Virus genome (UHGV): UHGV-0106476
Direction: 5' to 3' (one strand)
DNA length: 31,719 bases
DNA from: a virus
The notes under the pieces were generated by a model. That model was not told where the DNA came from. It saw only the letters and a program-made list of their open reading frames with translations, and did no database searches. The translations under genes and the position numbers were made by a program. This document shows, piece after piece, positions 1-17,333 of the stretch. Position 1 is the stretch's first letter, and each line of letters starts with the position of its first letter.

Positions 1-347
1 GGTTCGGCCTGAAGCATGGCGGCGCGATAGGCGTTCCAGCCGACAGCTTTTCCGTGTTCAAACGCGCTGTCAAAGTCATCATCCATTTCCATCGCATCAG
101 GCACAGATACCGGCGCTGGCGGGGCGGTGTAAACAGGCATAACGTCGCTTTGCCCTTTATTGCTCTCGTCAGTAAGCGCCCAGAAAAGCCTACCCGCTGG
201 ATGCTTGAAGATATACGCCACAGCCTCCGCTTCGAGCGATGCCAGCGCGATACGCGCCAGCGCCGAAGCCTCACCACATTGAACGTGGTCAGTTTCGATA
301 ATTTGCTGTAACTGCTCTTTGGTGAATTCTTTGGTGATAGTGATCAT
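1..347 (-). CDS. hypothetical early-left operon protein, N-terminal part only (gene runs off the window start)
   Basis: Minus-strand ATG at 345-347 with GAGGA about 8 nt upstream; frame open to the window edge (MITITKEFTKEQLQQIIETDHVQCGE...). Absent from the ORF track because there is no stop in the window. Confidence 0.5.
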   Translation of the reverse strand, partial: MITITKEFTKEQLQQIIETDHVQCGEASALARIALASLEAEAVAYIFKHPAGRLFWALTDESNKGQSDVMPVYTAPPAPVSVPDAMEMDDDFDSAFEHGKAVGWNAYRAAMLQAE

Positions 348-350
348 GGG

Positions 351-785
351 TTAGTCCTCACCTTTCTGCTGTACAACCGGAACCGATAAATCTACACACC
401 AGGAAATCACCCCAAATTGGGCGTCGTTCTGCGCTTCACCGTAAACGTAATATTTAGCACCAGGTCGCCCCATCACTGGATCAAATACTTCGATACCACG
501 CTCTGCCGTTAATGACATTAAAATCTGGTGTAACCCGCCCTGAATATTCAGAGACGGTACGGTCAGGAAATAAATAAACCCATAAAGCAGTTCACATTTT
601 CTTTGGCTGCCGTAGAAGTAAGGGATTTTGTAATAATCCAGGGCATCATCCAGCCAGTCTGTTTTGTCGTGAAAAGCCTGGTGCCAGCGAGCAACCACCT
701 CGTCAACAGGCTGACCAGCAACCATTGCTACACAGGTAGCCATGCAGGTGTTAAATGTTGGCTGCATTTGATGTTGAAGCATCAC
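351..785 (-). CDS. hypothetical protein with peptidase C39-like (papain-fold cysteine peptidase) N-terminal motif
   Basis: 144-aa ORF; N-terminal Q-x5-TC-MATC-VAMV resembles the Q...CG-x-AC-LAM-I catalytic-Cys motif of C39 bacteriocin-processing peptidases. Start overlaps the upstream gene's stop (ATGA-type coupling). Family call is from memory. Confidence 0.5.
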   Translation of the reverse strand: MMLQHQMQPTFNTCMATCVAMVAGQPVDEVVARWHQAFHDKTDWLDDALDYYKIPYFYGSQRKCELLYGFIYFLTVPSLNIQGGLHQILMSLTAERGIEVFDPVMGRPGAKYYVYGEAQNDAQFGVISWCVDLSVPVVQQKGED

Positions 786-3788: not shown

Positions 3789-3904
3789 AATAAGACCTCA
3801 ACTCTTTTCCATCCGTCACGTAATTTACGGGTGATTCGTTCAAGTAAAGATTCATTTAGTTGGAAGGCACCCATGCGAGCGCCTCCCGCGATTGCGTAAA
3901 TCAT
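3773..3904 (-). CDS. cIII: CIII (FtsH inhibitor stabilising CII)
   Basis: 43-aa ORF MIYAIAGGARMGAFQLNESLLERITRKLRDGWKRVEVLLCAMK; the ESLLERITRKLRDGWKR segment matches the conserved core of lambda CIII. Below the ORF-track length cutoff. Confidence 0.8.
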   Translation of the reverse strand: MIYAIAGGARMGAFQLNESLLERITRKLRDGWKRVEVLLCAMK

Positions 3905-3927
3905 GGGTGGTTCCTTATGTTGGTTTA

Positions 3928-4896
3928 TTAGTAGGTTATTTTTGTTGCGAATACTTCGCCTTTTACGATGGCTGTTATGATATTTTTAGCAACATCTTCT
4001 GATGCGCCAACCTTGATAAGGTCAGCAAGTATTTTGTTATTTACTTCTTTCCGGTGAGCTTTATCCTTTGCTCTACGCTCTTCTTCGTCCTTGATTCTTT
4101 TTTCTTCTGCTATTCTGGCTTGCTCTTTTGCTTCAGCCTCGCGCCGGATTCGTTCAGCCTCCTCCTGTGCTTTTCGGCGTTCTGCTTCAATTGCCGCCTG
4201 CTTTTCTCTTTCAGCTCGTTCTGCTGCCTCTTTTGCTTCGCGCTGTGCTCGTTGCTCGGCTTCAATGCGTTCACGCTCTGCACGTTCCGCTGCGGCCTTA
4301 GCTTCTGCTTCTCGCCTTGCTGCTGCTTCAATTTCGGCTTTTGCCTTTGCTTCGGCTTCTGCTCTGGCTTTCTCTTCAGCTTCTCTTTTTAAGCGTTCTT
4401 CATGCTCTCGCTTTTCCTGCTCCGCTTTGAGTCTTGCCTCTTCTCTTTGGCGGTCAAATTCGCGATCCATCAAAATAGCTATTTCATGGTCAGACTCAAT
4501 TTGCTTTGCGAGAGCTTCAGCTGCTGCCTTAGCTTCTTCTTCGGCTTTAATCCGTGCCTGTTCCTCCTCATAATCAGTAAGAGGCTGGCGTGCCTTGGAT
4601 TTCAGCTCATCAAGGCGATCACGCACTGTCTTGCGGTTGGCATCAATTAGCTTTGGAATTTCCTTCAGTTCAGCAACAAGGTCTTTTCCAAGACCATCGA
4701 GATATGTTTTCGTCTGCGCAACTTTATACGCCAGAGAAGCGATCTCCTTTCTGCCCTTTGCCGTTGTGATATCAGGCACAAAGGACATAACTTCACGTTC
4801 AACCTTTTGAAGGATTTCTTCAATCTGGTCGGCAGACTGAAATACAGTCATTGCATTTGCTTTTTCAATAACAACTAAATCTGTTACTTCACTCAT
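3928..4896 (-). CDS. hypothetical protein with long E/A/K/R-rich charged helical repeat region
   Basis: 322-aa ORF: globular N-terminus, about 150 aa of EAKAxAE/RREAE-type repeats, then a short C-terminal domain (NKILADLIKVGASEDVAKNIITAIVKGEVFATKITY). Confidence 0.6.
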   Translation of the reverse strand: MSEVTDLVVIEKANAMTVFQSADQIEEILQKVEREVMSFVPDITTAKGRKEIASLAYKVAQTKTYLDGLGKDLVAELKEIPKLIDANRKTVRDRLDELKSKARQPLTDYEEEQARIKAEEEAKAAAEALAKQIESDHEIAILMDREFDRQREEARLKAEQEKREHEERLKREAEEKARAEAEAKAKAEIEAAARREAEAKAAAERAERERIEAEQRAQREAKEAAERAEREKQAAIEAERRKAQEEAERIRREAEAKEQARIAEEKRIKDEEERRAKDKAHRKEVNNKILADLIKVGASEDVAKNIITAIVKGEVFATKITY

Positions 4897-13101: not shown

Positions 13102-13713
13102 ATAGCTAAACCAGCGCGAAGAAGATGTAAAAACGATGAATGCCGGGAATGGTTTCACCCTGCATTCGCTAATCAGTGGTGGTGCTCTCCAGAGTGTGGA
13201 ACAAAGATAGCACTCGAACGACGAAGTAAAGAACGCGAAAAAGCGGAAAAAGCAGCAGAGAAGAAACGACGACGAGAGGAGCAGAAACAGAAAGATAAAC
13301 TTAAGATTCGAAAACTCGCCTTAAAGCCCCGCAGTTACTGGATTAAACAAGCCCAACAAGCCGTAAACGCCTTCATCAGAGAAAGAGACCGCGACTTACC
13401 ATGTATCTCGTGCGGAACGCTCACGTCTGCTCAGTGGGATGCCGGACATTACCGGACAACTGCTGCGGCACCTCAACTCCGATTTGATGAACGCAATATT
13501 CACAAGCAATGCGTGGTGTGCAACCAGCACAAAAGCGGAAATCTCGTTCCGTATCGCGTCGAACTGATTAATCGCATCGGGCAGGAAGCAGTAGACGAAA
13601 TAGAATCAAACCATAACCGCCATCGCTGGACTGTCGAAGAGTGCAGGGCCATCAAGGCGGAGTATCAGCAGAAACTCAAAGACCTGCGAAATAGCAGAAG
13701 TGAGGCCGCATGA
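13102..13713 (+). CDS. ninG: NinG (Rap-type recombination protein); N-terminus encoded without a canonical start codon
   Basis: The frame is open from 13081 and encodes a full NinG-like protein ([33 protein letters not shown]...CISCG...[10 protein letters not shown]). The first canonical in-frame start is the GTG at 13513; the conserved N-terminus begins at ATA (13102-13104). Confidence 0.6.
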
Positions 13714-13916: not shown

Positions 13917-14565
13917 TGGCAGCAAATACCGAAATATTTGGGTAGTTGGCGATCTGCACGGATGCTACACGAACCTGACGAAAAAACTGGAGACGATAGG
14001 ATTCGACACCAAAAAAGACCTGCTTATCTCGGTTGGCGATTTGGTCGATCGCGGTACAGAGAACGTCGAATGTCTGGAATTAATCACATTCCCCTGGTTC
14101 CGAGCTGTACGTGGAAACCATGAGCAAATGATGATTGATGGCTTATCAGAGCGTGGAAACGTTAATCACTGGCTGCTTAATGGCGGTGGCTGGTTCTTCA
14201 ATCTCGATTACGACAAAGAAATTCTGGCTAAAGCTCTTGCCCATAAAGCAGAAGAACTTCCGTTAATCATCGAACTGGTGAGCAAAGGTAAAAAATATGT
14301 CATCTGCCACGCCGATTATCCTTGTGACGAATACGAGTTTGGAAAGCCTGTTGATCATCAGCAGGTAATCTGGAACCGCGAACGAATCAGCAACTCACAA
14401 GACGGGATCGTGAAAGAAATAAAAGGCGCGGACACGTTCATCTTTGGTCATACGCCAGCAGTGAAACCACTCAAGTTTGCCAACCAGATGTATATCGATA
14501 CCGGCGCAGTGTTCTGCGGAAACCTCACATTGATTCAGGTACAGGGAGAAGGCGCATGGGCATAA
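13894..14565 (+). CDS. ninI: serine/threonine protein phosphatase (lambda NinI-type)
   Basis: 221 aa from the ATG at 13894 ([24 protein letters not shown]...), with metallophosphatase motifs GDLHG, GDLVDRG and GNHE; GGAG RBS. Confidence 0.85.
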
Positions 14566-15074
14566 GAGAACTAAACCTCACCAAAGAGCAGCACGAGTGG
14601 CTGAATGGCTGGCTTGAACTGTGGGGCGCATGGGTTTATTCAGGTCGTCTGGAAAAGCGCATGAGCAGCGTAATAGCGAAGTTCATGGAGAGCGTAGAGC
14701 CGGGAAGAGTTATGACAAGGCCAATGTGTAATGATGATGATGGAATGTTGATTTCTCAGGTCGTCGATTCCGTCATGTACATTGACAAGAAAGCCTTTGG
14801 CATCCTCCTCAGCTACTACGCTCATGGTTCATCAAAGCGAGCAATTGCATCCTACTATCACGCGACTGCAAAGCCACGCAAGATGTGTGGACGTGGTGGC
14901 GAGGGATGGAGAAAACCTTCACTGGCAACCTGTAGAAACGAAATTGACGACATCCTGAAATCGTCGTTATTTGTTTTGTACCAACCAATGCAAAATGCTT
15001 TCAAAATGCGTAAACGTGTTGAGAAAGTTAAGCATGTTGCTGTTAAAAGCCTTGACATGCAATTAGCCATTTAG
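14556..15074 (+). CDS. Q: Q-type late-gene antiterminator
   Basis: 172-aa ORF between ninI and the late promoter/lysis genes; LELWGAW and [10 protein letters not shown] segments resemble recalled Q proteins of the P22 gp23 / phage 82 type. Call is by synteny plus partial recollection. Confidence 0.6.
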
Positions 15075-15081
15075 CCATAAT
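15052..15081 (+). promoter_or_regulatory. candidate late promoter pR'
   Basis: TTGACA (15052-15057), 18-nt spacer, CATAAT (15076-15081), spanning the Q stop codon. Confidence 0.4.
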
Positions 15082-15091
15082 TAGAGGGTAA

Positions 15092-15133
15092 GCTGCCGTT
15101 AGTGACTCTTAAGTTGCAACGGTGGCTTTTTTT
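15092..15133 (+). terminator. putative intrinsic terminator downstream of pR' (tR'-like)
   Basis: 9-bp stem (15092-15100 with 15118-15126, two G-U pairs), 17-nt loop, then a T7 run (15127-15133). Confidence 0.4.
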
Positions 15134-15351
15134 GTTTGCACAACAGGTAAGAGCATTGACTACACCAGATAAATCTTCGGATGTAATGGTAAAACCATGC
15201 AGTGCTCTTTCCTGTTATCCCTCCAGCGCATCTCACGCGCATATTAACGAGAGCCTTTCAGTAAGCGAGCCTGAGAAATGCCGTTATAGGTGGCGACCTC
15301 TCTCGGGCGGCTTTTCTGTGAGACAGGCTCGCTTTCTAAAAGGTTTACGCA

Positions 15352-15861
15352 ATGCTTTTAACAAGTGAACGCATTAAAGAATCTTTGTCATTTAATCCAT
15401 CTACCGGCATCTTCGTGTGGAAGGTAAAAACAGGAAGATCTAAGCCTGGCATGATTGCTGGTTCGCTGAATTCGTTCGGTTACAGGCAAATATCTTTAGG
15501 AGGTAAAAGATACTTTGCTCATCGTCTGGCGTGGATTTTGTGCAATGGCGAAATAAATAGCGGCTTAGAAATAGATCATGTGAATGGCATAAGAGACGAC
15601 AACAGGATATCAAATCTTAGGATTGTTAGCAGATCGCAAAACAACATGAACACAATAACCTCGAAAAGGAACCGGTCTGGTTGTCGTGGTGTTTGTTTCC
15701 ACTCGAGAGATAGGCTTTGGCATGCTCGTGTTTTTGTTAATAGAAAAACTGCGGCCTTCAAGACATTTAAACGCAAAGAGGATGCTATAAAATTTGTGAC
15801 TTCGGAAAGGGAAAAAATATTCGGAAGTTACAACAAGAATTGTGGTGAATGCGCAGGCTGA
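15352..15861 (+). CDS. HNH homing-type endonuclease with C-terminal AP2 DNA-binding domain
   Basis: 169 aa with an HNH_3-like core (KRYFAHRLAWILCNG...IDHVNGIRDDNRISNLRIVSRSQNNMN) and an AP2-like C-terminus (GCRGVCFHSRDRLWHARVFVNRKTAAFKTFKRKEDAIKFV). Confidence 0.7.
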   Translation: MLLTSERIKESLSFNPSTGIFVWKVKTGRSKPGMIAGSLNSFGYRQISLGGKRYFAHRLAWILCNGEINSGLEIDHVNGIRDDNRISNLRIVSRSQNNMNTITSKRNRSGCRGVCFHSRDRLWHARVFVNRKTAAFKTFKRKEDAIKFVTSEREKIFGSYNKNCGECAG

Positions 15862-16033
15862 TGCGCTAACGCTCAGAGGTGAGCACCTAGCTTCGGGCTA
15901 GGATGGGTAGCCTCAAGTTGGAGTTCAGCACCAACCACCACAACCCAAACTGAGCCGTAGCCACTGGCTATCCTGAATTCATCAGTGATAGTTACGCTGC
16001 GGCCTTCTACACATGACCTTCGTGAAAGCGGGT

Positions 16034-16068
16034 GGCAGGAGGTCGCGCTAACAACCTCCTGCCGTTTT
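16034..16068 (+). terminator. strong intrinsic terminator between the HNH gene and the lysis cassette
   Basis: Perfect 10-bp GC-rich stem GGCAGGAGGT / ACCTCCTGCC with a 10-nt loop, followed by GTTTTG. Confidence 0.65.
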
Positions 16069-16190
16069 GCCCGTGCATATCGGTCACGAACAAATCTGAT
16101 TACTAAACGCAGTAGCCTGGATTTGTTCTATCAGTAATCGACCTTATTCCTAATTAAATAGAGCAAATCCCCTCAATGAAGGGGTAGAGC

Positions 16191-16394
16191 ATGTACCGTA
16201 TGGACAAAATCAGAGAATGGTTCAGTTACAGCTTCGGAGGACTGACTGCGATGGGTGGCATTCTCTCCCTGAATGACTGGGCTGTCATCATTGGTATTCT
16301 TTGTACTGTCGGCACATTTGGCATCAACTGGTACTACAAGCGCAAAGAGCGCGAGGACAGATTGAATGGCAATGTCACCGGCACTACGAAATAG
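16191..16394 (+). CDS. class II holin (S21-like pinholin) with dual-start motif
   Basis: 67-aa [13 protein letters not shown]... with Met1/Met4 dual starts, two hydrophobic segments and a charged C-terminus; directly upstream of a SAR endolysin. Confidence 0.7.
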
Positions 16395-16869
16395 CGTAAT
16401 AGCGGCGATAAGTGGCGGGGCTATTGCTATAGCATCTGTGTTAATCACTGGACCAAGTGGTAACGATGGTCTGGAAGGTGTCAGCTACATACCATACAAA
16501 GATATTGTTGGTGTATGGACTGTATGTCACGGACACACCGGAAAAGACATCATGCTCGGTAAAACGTATACCGAAGCAGAATGCAAAGCTCTCCTGAATA
16601 AAGACCTTGCCACGGTCGCCAGACAAATTAACCCGTACATCAAAGTCGATATACCGGAAACAACGCGCGGCGCTCTTTACTCGTTCGTCTACAACGTTGG
16701 TGCTGGCAATTTCAGAACATCGACGCTTCTTCGCAAAATCAACCAGGGCGATATCAAAGGTGCATGTGATCAGTTACGTCGTTGGACATACGCTGGCGGT
16801 AAGCAATGGAAAGGGCTGATGACCCGTCGTGATATTGAGCGAGAGGTCTGTTTGTGGGGGCAACAATGA
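16366..16869 (+). CDS. SAR endolysin (phage lysozyme, GH24, R21-like)
   Basis: N-terminal Gly/Ala-rich signal-anchor-release segment ([19 protein letters not shown]) followed by a lysozyme E-x8-D-x5-T catalytic triad ([16 protein letters not shown]); recalled as near-identical to phage 21 R. Confidence 0.85.
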
Positions 16870-17333
16870 GCAGAGTAACCGCGATTATCTCCGCTCTGGT
16901 TATCTGCATCATCGTCTGCCTGTCATGGGCTGTTAATCATTACCGTGATAACGTCATCGCCTACAAAGAACAGCGAGATAAAAAAGTCAGTGAGCTGAAG
17001 CAGGCGACCGCCACCATTACTGACATGCAGCAGCGCCAGCGTTCTGCTGATGCACTCGATGCTAAATACACGAAGGAGTTAGCTGATGCGAAAGCTGAAA
17101 ATGATGCTCTTCGGCGCAAGCTTGATAATGGCGGCAGGGTGCTCGTCAAAGGAAAATGCCCTGTGCCATCCTCAGCCGAAACCTCCGGCGCCTCCGGCAT
17201 GGGCAATGATGCCACCGTCGAACTCTCTCCAGTTGCTGGACGAAACGTTCTCGGTGTCCGGGACGGAATTATCCGCGACCAAACAGCACTGAGAACGCTT
17301 CAGGAATACATCAGGACGCAATGCCTTCGATGA
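16866..17333 (+). CDS. Rz: Rz i-spanin
   Basis: 155 aa with an N-terminal TM segment and coiled-coil periplasmic domain; ATGA overlap with the endolysin stop; Rz1 is embedded in the +1 frame. Confidence 0.8.
17086..17292 (+). CDS. Rz1: Rz1 o-spanin lipoprotein (embedded in Rz)
   Basis: 68 aa [21 protein letters not shown]... with a lipobox and proline-rich mature region, fully inside Rz in another frame. Confidence 0.8.

Follow-up and report, generated by a model that had tools for sequence, protein, structure and literature searches.

A free-standing HNH endonuclease gene, apparently mobile, at a conserved hairpin in the late-operon leader of lambdoid phages

Homing endonucleases have, to our knowledge, been worked out almost entirely in virulent phages (T4, T5, SPO1, and ICP1); among them, I-HmuI of the Bacillus phage SPO1—a known nicking enzyme whose gene lies within a group I intron—is the closest characterised enzyme to the protein described here. 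The combination of an HNH nuclease with an AP2 domain constitutes a known homing endonuclease family according to PMC10448857, which cites and extends the work of Magnani et al. (2004; Plant Cell 16:2265); the 'IPA-HNH' genes of ICP1 phages belong to this family (PMC10448857). Here, we analysed an HNH endonuclease gene within a 31,719-nucleotide (nt) stretch of the virus genome UHGV-0106476 (hereafter, the window), a metagenome contig (ENA ERZ1304861, NODE_1497) of a P22-like temperate Escherichia coli phage with phiv205-1 and CUS-3 as its nearest named relatives. The open reading frame (ORF; 15352–15861, + strand), called as a protein of 169 amino acids (aa) running from ATG to TGA and identified with Pfam and PHROG, lies downstream of Q and the late promoter pR′ and upstream of the lysis cassette, in the order and at the coordinates given by the original prediction from the sequence. 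We consider it probable that this is a free-standing homing-type endonuclease gene, combining an I-HmuI-like HNH_3 core with an AP2-like DNA-binding domain and expressed late in a Q-dependent manner.

HNH-AP2 homing endonucleases are the closest described family. The window protein shares with them an N-terminal HNH domain, a C-terminal AP2-type DNA-binding domain, and a sporadic occurrence in phage genomes; its subfamily differs in having an AP2 domain too divergent for Pfam to detect and in being specialised for temperate lambdoid phages, in whose late leader it resides; most described examples are from virulent phages, cyanobacteria, or protists. The gene is unremarkable for its class, which is a known one, and adds another to the sporadic selfish nucleases; the only parts that a specialist might find new are a defined, though putative, target in lambda and a shared leader RNA.

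The closest genomic precedent is the HNH gene of HK629 (gp61; WP_000658763-type in E. coli prophages, e.g. VR50), which is annotated as HNH_3 plus AP2, encodes 170 aa, occupies the same Q-to-holin interval next to the same type of Q, and has upstream of it a diverged version of the leader RNA found before the window gene (35 bits). Yet its product is 38% identical to the window protein, and the gene is inserted ~130 nt further upstream, right after the pR′ –10 box and before its copy of the terminator tR′. Moreover, it is present in complete E. coli genomes, 5,426 of which returned no megablast match to the body of the window gene. Both types occur in tandem between Q and the lysis genes at locus L015 (HK629-type HNH-AP2 gene, 923–1435; window-type HNH gene, 1703–2212). 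A further protein, P0005, is a chimera: its N-terminal part matches the HK629-type protein up to DNRISNLR, and from there its C-terminal part has the sequence of the window protein without any difference. The two types of gene therefore recombine within the conserved HNH motif.

A looser parallel is offered by T4 SegB, reportedly a GIY-YIG enzyme of a virulent phage whose homing is said to have been shown experimentally, and by the endonucleases of the T5 tRNA region: these, too, are free-standing nuclease genes that sit among tRNA genes or what remains of them and are present in some phages but absent from related ones. For the window gene, homing is a prediction. For SegB, PMC10448857 cites PMID 18281701. 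A literature search on HNH homing endonucleases of lambdoid phages yielded no more than general comments on the sporadic presence of HNH genes in this group.

The window protein matches the Pfam HNH_3 profile (PF13392) over its whole length at aa 54–99 (nt 15511–15648; E=2.9e-18, 65.6 bits against a cut-off of 24.8) and PHROG 99, 'HNH endonuclease' (E=6e-61), and NCBI already annotates it as 'HNH endonuclease signature motif containing protein'. The proposed check of its catalytic residues, carried out on an alignment of 49 homologues, found H57, R58, D75, H76, N84, N88, L89, R90, N97, and N100 to be invariant; the catalytic set among these, D75-H76...N88...N97, aligns with D74-H75...N87...N96 of I-HmuI. 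That enzyme (PDB 1U3E) is the sole solved structure matched by sequence (phmmer E=2e-4). It is also the top PDB match of an AlphaFold2 model built from the homologue alignment (Foldseek E=7e-4, probability 1.00, root-mean-square deviation 3.2 Å over 94 columns), a model with a mean predicted local distance difference test score (pLDDT) of 88.6 and a beta-beta-alpha-metal fold. The likeness extends over the N-terminal beta domain as well as the HNH core.

The C-terminal part, helical in I-HmuI, is different. Following the N-terminal beta domain and HNH_3, the window protein carries an AP2-like domain of three strands and a helix (aa ~110–160; nt ~15679–15831), modelled as strands 114–117, 122–129, and 132–139 and helix 142–160. 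This domain matches the AP2 domain of Arabidopsis TEM1 (7ET4/7ET5; probability 0.95–0.99, with 0.99 for 7ET4; template modelling score 0.43 on the target) and, more weakly, those of WRINKLED1 (7WQ5) and PfAP2 (3IGM), with weak E-values (0.17–0.6), as the domain makes up only one third of the query. It further aligns column for column with AP2-bearing homologues, with G110, G113, V114, W123, A125, and A145 invariant or at least 90% conserved. Homologues of 40–45% identity, aligned over their full length, pass Pfam AP2, and among the listed homologues of 40–50% identity about half have precomputed Pfam matches to both AP2 and HNH_3. The AP2 scores of individual homologues range from 13.4 bits for P0003 (66% identical) through 35.1 for HK629 gp61 to 36.4 for P0012 (44% identical). 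Given the fold matches and the full-length homologues with a Pfam AP2 domain, HNH plus AP2 is right as an architecture and a fold, with a divergent AP2; the original assignment thus stands for HNH_3 by Pfam and for AP2 by fold and homology, and fails for AP2 by Pfam on this very sequence. Overall, the gene product is predicted to be an I-HmuI-like HNH_3 nuclease with an AP2-like C-terminal domain.

Comparison of the Q-to-holin interval across related phages confirmed that the gene is a free-standing insertion with exact boundaries and abundant empty-site alleles. Together with its own leader, the gene forms a 627-nt insertion (15213–15839, + strand) at one precise position, namely the 3′ foot of the hairpin found right after tR′ in a great many lambdoid phages, lambda among them. 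The boundaries were taken from blastn segment maps and direct reading of the junctions against lambda, L009, L003, HK75, and CobraSix. In lambda-type empty sites, CAGTGCTCTT-TCC is joined to GTTGTGSTGAAT; in the window, the insertion is bounded by ...CAGTGCTCTTTCC and TTGTGGTGAATGCGCAGGCTGATGCGC and comprises the leader and the HNH ORF minus its last seven codons. With the insertion, the interval between Q and the holin gene measures 1,116 nt, as compared to ~460–610 nt in relatives without any gene there.

The hairpin itself (15142–15216, + strand, from the predicted fold) has the conserved arms AACAGG-U-AAGAGCAUUG and CAGUGCUCUU-U-CCUGUU around a variable interior, and the insertion point is its 3′ foot. 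The same arms, each time with a different interior, recur in lambda (44,786–44,868; L028 987–1069), HK75, HK629, CobraSix, and prophages of Klebsiella and Pantoea. In the empty alleles—lambda, HK75, HK629, LD39-1, strain 2018-01-1CC, and the Enterobacter phage CobraSix—the hairpin directly follows tR′ in all cases, with the arms CACAAC-AGGT-AAGAGCATTG and CAGTGCTCTT-(ATC or TCC)-GTTGTG, then (G/C)TGAAT. Its 3′ side reads uninterrupted as CAGTGCTCT(T/G)-(ATC/TCC)-G(T/A)TGTG(G/C)TGAA in lambda, HK75, LD39-1, HK629, and CobraSix. The base of the hairpin is CACAAC/GTTGTG in empty and AACAGG/CCTGTT in occupied alleles, the latter supplied by the insertion: its first bases, CCTGTT, pair with AACAGG, so the base of the hairpin stays closed. 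The interior of the hairpin sometimes resembles a tRNA T-arm (GGGTTCGAATCCC).

On the other side, the right target half TTGTGGTGAATGCGCAGGCTGATGCGC (15840–15866, + strand) abuts the hairpin directly in empty alleles. The ORF extends beyond the insertion, so that its final seven codons plus the stop codon come from the flank, with the right target half providing codons 163–169 (from the final base of codon 163; …CGECAG) and the stop. This flank-derived tail is the sole disordered part of the model (pLDDT below 50), and a Cronobacter homologue reads the identical flank DNA in another frame (VVNAQADA...). The right target half is conserved even though synonymous divergence (dS) in the gene has reached saturation; the homologues in L024 and L027 are likewise followed by this 26-nt right flank.

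The gene is free-standing rather than intron- or intein-encoded, and the insertion lies in non-coding leader DNA—unlike I-HmuI, whose gene sits in an intron. The window has no match to any Rfam family at gathering scores, and a search of 15000–16250 at E≤5 gave just two chance matches (mir-627 and sR14) and no intron of group I or II; on these results, riboswitches, ribozymes, and group I/II introns of known types were rejected for the surroundings of the gene. Nor is there room for a 3′ intron core, since the ORF reaches the very end of the insertion.

At locus L026 (4980–5003), a 64% identical homologue sits between lysis and terminase genes, and its start codon is joined without a gap to the target hairpin's 5′ arm (GCACAACAGGTAAGAGCATG), suggesting that the HNH lineage and that hairpin have long been associated.

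The contrast between occupied and empty alleles is sharpest in the near-isogenic pair L017 (occupied) and L009 (empty), which share a left flank of 681 nt at 96% and a right flank of 1,359 nt at 94% identity, separated by 680 nt in L017 versus 51 nt in L009. A protein identical to that of the window occurs in 25 blocks of the contig index. On the 24 contigs read, it is found beside three different Q/holin combinations: its neighbours are a 172-aa or 162-aa Q and a 2_3-type or lambda-S-type holin, or else it stands behind a second HNH gene. Variants of at least 90% aa identity are present in Klebsiella (198 blocks), Enterobacter, and Pantoea, and are also recorded from Salmonella and Cronobacter. 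At the nucleotide level, the cassette made up of left target half, insertion, and right target half (15198–15866, + strand; blastn) is matched at 89–100% identity at the same junction across prophages of E. coli, Klebsiella, Enterobacter, and Pantoea, and outside it the flanks of the host phages are unrelated. The match spans 15198–15866 in Pantoea (94%) and 15201–15869 in Enterobacter (96%), ends at 15866 in L015, and in Klebsiella begins at 15200 and continues to 16009 (89–90%).

One and the same cassette is hence found at this junction in prophages from several genera of enterobacteria with unrelated antiterminators and lysis genes: the Enterobacter, Klebsiella, and Pantoea loci carry antiterminators (lambda-Q type or of no Pfam family) and lysis genes unlike those of the window. 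Its distribution is discordant with the host genomes, as judged by the Q and lysis modules in the contexts from E. coli and these three genera, and more distant homologues (58–66% identical) are likewise found between antiterminator and lysis genes. Empty sites prevail. In IMG/VR, the occupied left junction is present on six contigs versus at least 120 for the empty junction; the empty-site region is matched by 709 complete E. coli genomes, and no protein above 60% aa identity was found among 50,697 phage records. Exact and recurrent insertion, abundant empty sites, and horizontal spread all support the earlier suggestion that this may be a mobile homing element; by these sequence comparisons, the gene is real and apparently mobile. 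Neither of the two outcomes that the original prediction named as refuting—the gene present at this site in all related phages, or catalytic residues lacking on alignment—was observed.

The protein is under purifying selection, and its active site is intact: the ratio of nonsynonymous to synonymous divergence (dN/dS) is 0.15 between the window and Enterobacter and 0.25 between L024 and L025. The G+C content is 40% for the ORF and 42% for the insertion, as against 48% for the window. That we are looking at an inactive remnant of a once-mobile endonuclease gene, kept by hitch-hiking alone, seems highly improbable. The AP2-like domain escapes Pfam, the C-terminal tail is translated flank sequence and predicted to be disordered, and truncated members of 86 and 136 aa also exist in the protein's cluster—all as a remnant would have it—but the ORF is full length with every catalytic residue present, the protein recurs unchanged on 24 contigs of differing background, the dN/dS lies clearly below 1, and the fold is predicted with confidence.

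Between the insertion point and the gene lies a structured leader RNA (15242–15354, + strand), a long hairpin that ends at the ATG and whose closing stem contains the Shine-Dalgarno sequence AAAGG; it is identified by its fold, by covariation, and by its score of 123 bits with the covariance model R1. Over 121 nt (15224–15344), the window sequence is 98–99% identical to the leader that precedes rha or T5orf172/GIY-YIG genes in other prophages, where these copies are located downstream of the lysis genes at a post-lysis slot. L017 carries both copies, 2.1 kb apart. Leaders of the same architecture and very different sequence precede rha, kilA-N, ant-type, T5orf172/GIY-YIG, and HNH-homologue genes. 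In a MAFFT alignment of 12 leaders, compensatory double changes are seen at 15 of the 24 pairs predicted, and pairing holds in 93% of cells, as compared to 32–53% with the partners slid, and none of 500 shuffles reached the observed values.

The covariance model built from this alignment found further copies on the coding strand, each ending at a start codon. Outside the window, the leader is located at L003 3152–3264, L006 3017–3129, L010 8042–8156, L020 8483–8598, L024 1334–1449 and 3468–3578, L027 8032–8144, HK620 (L029) 1519–1631, and HK629 (L002) 1206–1317. The genes that follow the model's matches encode Rha, KilA-N, ANT, T5orf172/MUG113, the HK629-type HNH protein, and one 207-aa protein. 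The latter, encoded in L094 (about 120–743, minus strand) after a leader match at 744–858, has no Pfam match and no recognisable nuclease domain; it contains IGVCLKKGSTKFQAGIKVNGKNKHLGMFHDPYLAHLAW, which is AP2-like by eye. The leader is absent from Rfam 15 (gathering scores over the whole window; E≤5 on 15000–16250), and a literature search for a leader of this kind upstream of rha returned nothing relevant. The window itself has no second copy after its lysis genes and lacks an rha-type slot gene.

Given the 98–99% identity of the 121-nt leader to that of rha and T5orf172, the sequence suggests that the leader-plus-gene unit was assembled at, or exchanged with, the post-lysis slot by recombination. 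More tentatively, the leader might act as a cis-regulatory 'adaptor' RNA, hitherto undescribed, that accompanies the swappable and potentially toxic accessory genes for DNA-binding proteins in lambdoid late operons, throttling their translation and providing homology for swaps between phages and between two late-operon sites. If so, the post-tR′ hairpin in lambda would constitute a natural and directly testable homing site for an endonuclease of a temperate phage. The leader, rather than the nuclease, is the more novel element. More broadly, the Q-to-lysis interval, which is also home to tRNA and toxin morons, here provides a concrete case of cargo gain and loss, in which cargo enters at a defined hairpin and with a reusable structured leader common to the post-lysis accessory slot.

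These same features also invite the explanation that leader and gene are a passive moron cassette, moved solely by homologous or illegitimate recombination at short conserved boundaries—the post-tR′ hairpin, the 26-nt right flank, and the rha-type leader—with no involvement of nuclease activity. The near-identity of the window leader to its post-lysis counterparts (both present in L017), the occurrence of one leader family before Rha, KilA-N, ANT, T5orf172, and two HNH lineages, and the coincidence of the cassette ends with sequences conserved in most lambdoid phages all speak for it, as do the 'boundary sequences' annotated in this interval of CUS-3. We nonetheless regard it as unlikely in this pure form: it does not account for the repeated occurrence, after this leader, of nuclease genes from three families (two HNH-AP2 lineages and T5orf172/GIY-YIG), nor for the intact active site, at a dN/dS of 0.15, of a gene dispensable to most relatives. 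Passive transfer and homing are compatible, since homing itself ends in homologous recombination.

Transcription of the gene has to be considered in its late-operon context. The Q antiterminator gene, of the phage 21/Sf6 type (14556–15074, + strand; Phage_antitermQ E=1.1e-25, PHROG 943 E=7e-93), overlaps at its end with a pR′-like late promoter (15052–15081, + strand; TTGACA-18-CATAAT, 11 of 12 matches in a promoter scan) whose sequence is annotated as pR′ in HK75. Between this promoter and the HNH gene lies the intrinsic terminator tR′ (15090–15138, + strand), a hairpin at 15090–15128 in the minimum free energy fold followed by a U-run to 15138; its sequence is 98% identical across all relatives, and the identical sequence is annotated as Tr′ in HK75. 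The promoter scan found no sigma-70-like site between tR′ and the start codon, and a promoter of the gene's own for expression in lysogens was therefore rejected. Nor did the proposal that a constitutive pR′ might allow lysogen expression find support, because tR′, a strong intrinsic terminator, intervenes, and no promoter-like site follows it. Taken together, the terminator between pR′ and the gene, the lack of a promoter beyond it, and the Shine-Dalgarno sequence held in a stem lead us to expect Q-dependent, late, and probably low expression. An effect of the gene on host phenotype or lysogen biology is unlikely.

Such timing would also suit a domesticated nuclease that benefits its phage, be it as a late weapon against competing lambdoid genomes or host DNA, or by assisting in the processing or packaging of DNA. 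This reading also draws support from purifying selection and from the unchanging place of the gene in the late operon, even in lineages as divergent as 58% identity. We judge this explanation improbable, however: the gene is absent from nearly all close relatives and so is not needed for growth, and the exclusion of competitors would be the same biochemical act as homing. The window phage, moreover, has terminase and portal genes of the Sf6/P22 type (locus L011), and phages with these package by a headful mechanism, which is not known to need an HNH partner.

The packaging-associated HNH proteins of the HK97 gp74 type, which Kala et al. (2014; PNAS 111:6022) reportedly described as parts of phage packaging machines, were considered separately. 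They are likewise small HNH proteins of the late region of lambdoid phages, but belong to another Pfam family (PF01844/HNH_5), measure about 116 aa, and are encoded elsewhere, adjoining the small terminase gene (Terminase_4). In L024 and L035 they are present as separate genes alongside the window HNH gene or a homologue. A packaging-type identity was rejected on these grounds.

Under the homing-type reading that we favour, the gene would be transcribed only by Q-modified polymerase reading through tR′, late in lytic growth, and the leader hairpin, with the ribosome-binding site inside it, would keep translation low so that little enzyme is made. The enzyme would nick or cut the uninterrupted post-tR′ site, or DNA nearby, in a co-replicating lambdoid genome without the gene, and recombinational repair from the occupied allele would copy in the cassette plus some flanking DNA. 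A linked variant of the hairpin interior (15160–15199) could represent such a co-conversion tract. The occupied allele would be immune, because the insertion splits the site. As the putative target is present in lambda and in hundreds of E. coli prophages, cleavage and gene conversion could be tested by standard lambda genetics.

Several points weigh against this scenario. Pfam AP2 (PF00847, cut-off 33.3 bits) gives no match at E≤0.01 with the whole protein, nor at E≤10 with aa 104–169. We infer the nuclease target from the insertion point alone, and free-standing homing endonucleases often cut some distance from their own gene. Spread to one junction could be explained by ordinary homologous recombination at conserved flanks without any need for a nuclease, and cassettes of this kind can be shuffled by recombination alone, as seen from a leader common to non-nuclease genes (rha, kilA-N, and ant). 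Finally, purifying selection and a constant late-operon position are equally expected of a gene beneficial to the phage.

Both flanks of the gene fold far better than shuffled sequences (upstream, 15082–15365, z=–6.5; downstream, 15836–16200, z=–5.5), in agreement with the original description of a gene bracketed by structured RNA. The upstream structure consists of three elements, namely tR′, the target hairpin, and the gene's leader RNA; the downstream structure consists of tRNA-like debris and the conserved lambda-type late leader. According to blastn segment maps, the interval from Q to the holin gene is a mosaic, with 15040–15159 matching the pR′/tR′ region of all relatives (97–98%) and 15840–16186 the usual leader before the holin gene (97% to L009). 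The conserved part of this late-operon leader (15936–16186, + strand), which forms the right flank, is 95.6% identical to lambda 44,933–45,181, and in CUS-3 the leader before the holin gene is annotated as boundary sequence bsq3. The lysis cassette starts with the holin gene (16191–16394, + strand; Phage_holin_2_3, E=4e-21), followed in the Pfam scan of window proteins by lysozyme (16366–16869) and Rz (16854–17333).

Outside this interval, the window at about 13102–13713 holds just a 66-aa ORF (13513–13713) matching the C-terminus of NinG, a protein of 203 aa in L010 and L012; ninG may thus be disrupted in the window, or the metagenome may be misassembled here. In L013, a close relative of the window phage, the nin region contains a second, different nuclease gene between ninF and rusA (3887–4396; NUMOD4 plus HNH_3, 169 aa) that is not present in the window.

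Intact genes for tRNA-Asn and tRNA-Thr occupy the Q-to-holin interval in relatives, with tRNAs in KE40, GF43, and Sf6. ARAGORN detected no tRNA gene anywhere in the window, and the region 3′ of the HNH gene is merely tRNA-like: a degenerate remnant (15862–15935, + strand), recognised by a weak local alignment to the tRNA-Thr of KE40, comprises a D-arm-like part, a CCUAG/CUAGG stem with a 7-nt loop, and a T-arm-like hairpin, then CCACCA. At 15917–15940 of the window and at the equivalent positions of L015, L020, L024, L025, L033, and L037, a small hairpin is followed by CCACCACAA. Its stems are compensatory (TTGG/CCAA, CCGG/CCGG, and CAGG/CCTG) around the loop AG(W)TCAGCR, and it occupies the position of the 3′ end of tRNA-Thr in tRNA-carrying alleles; this hairpin may be a tRNA remnant retained for another use.

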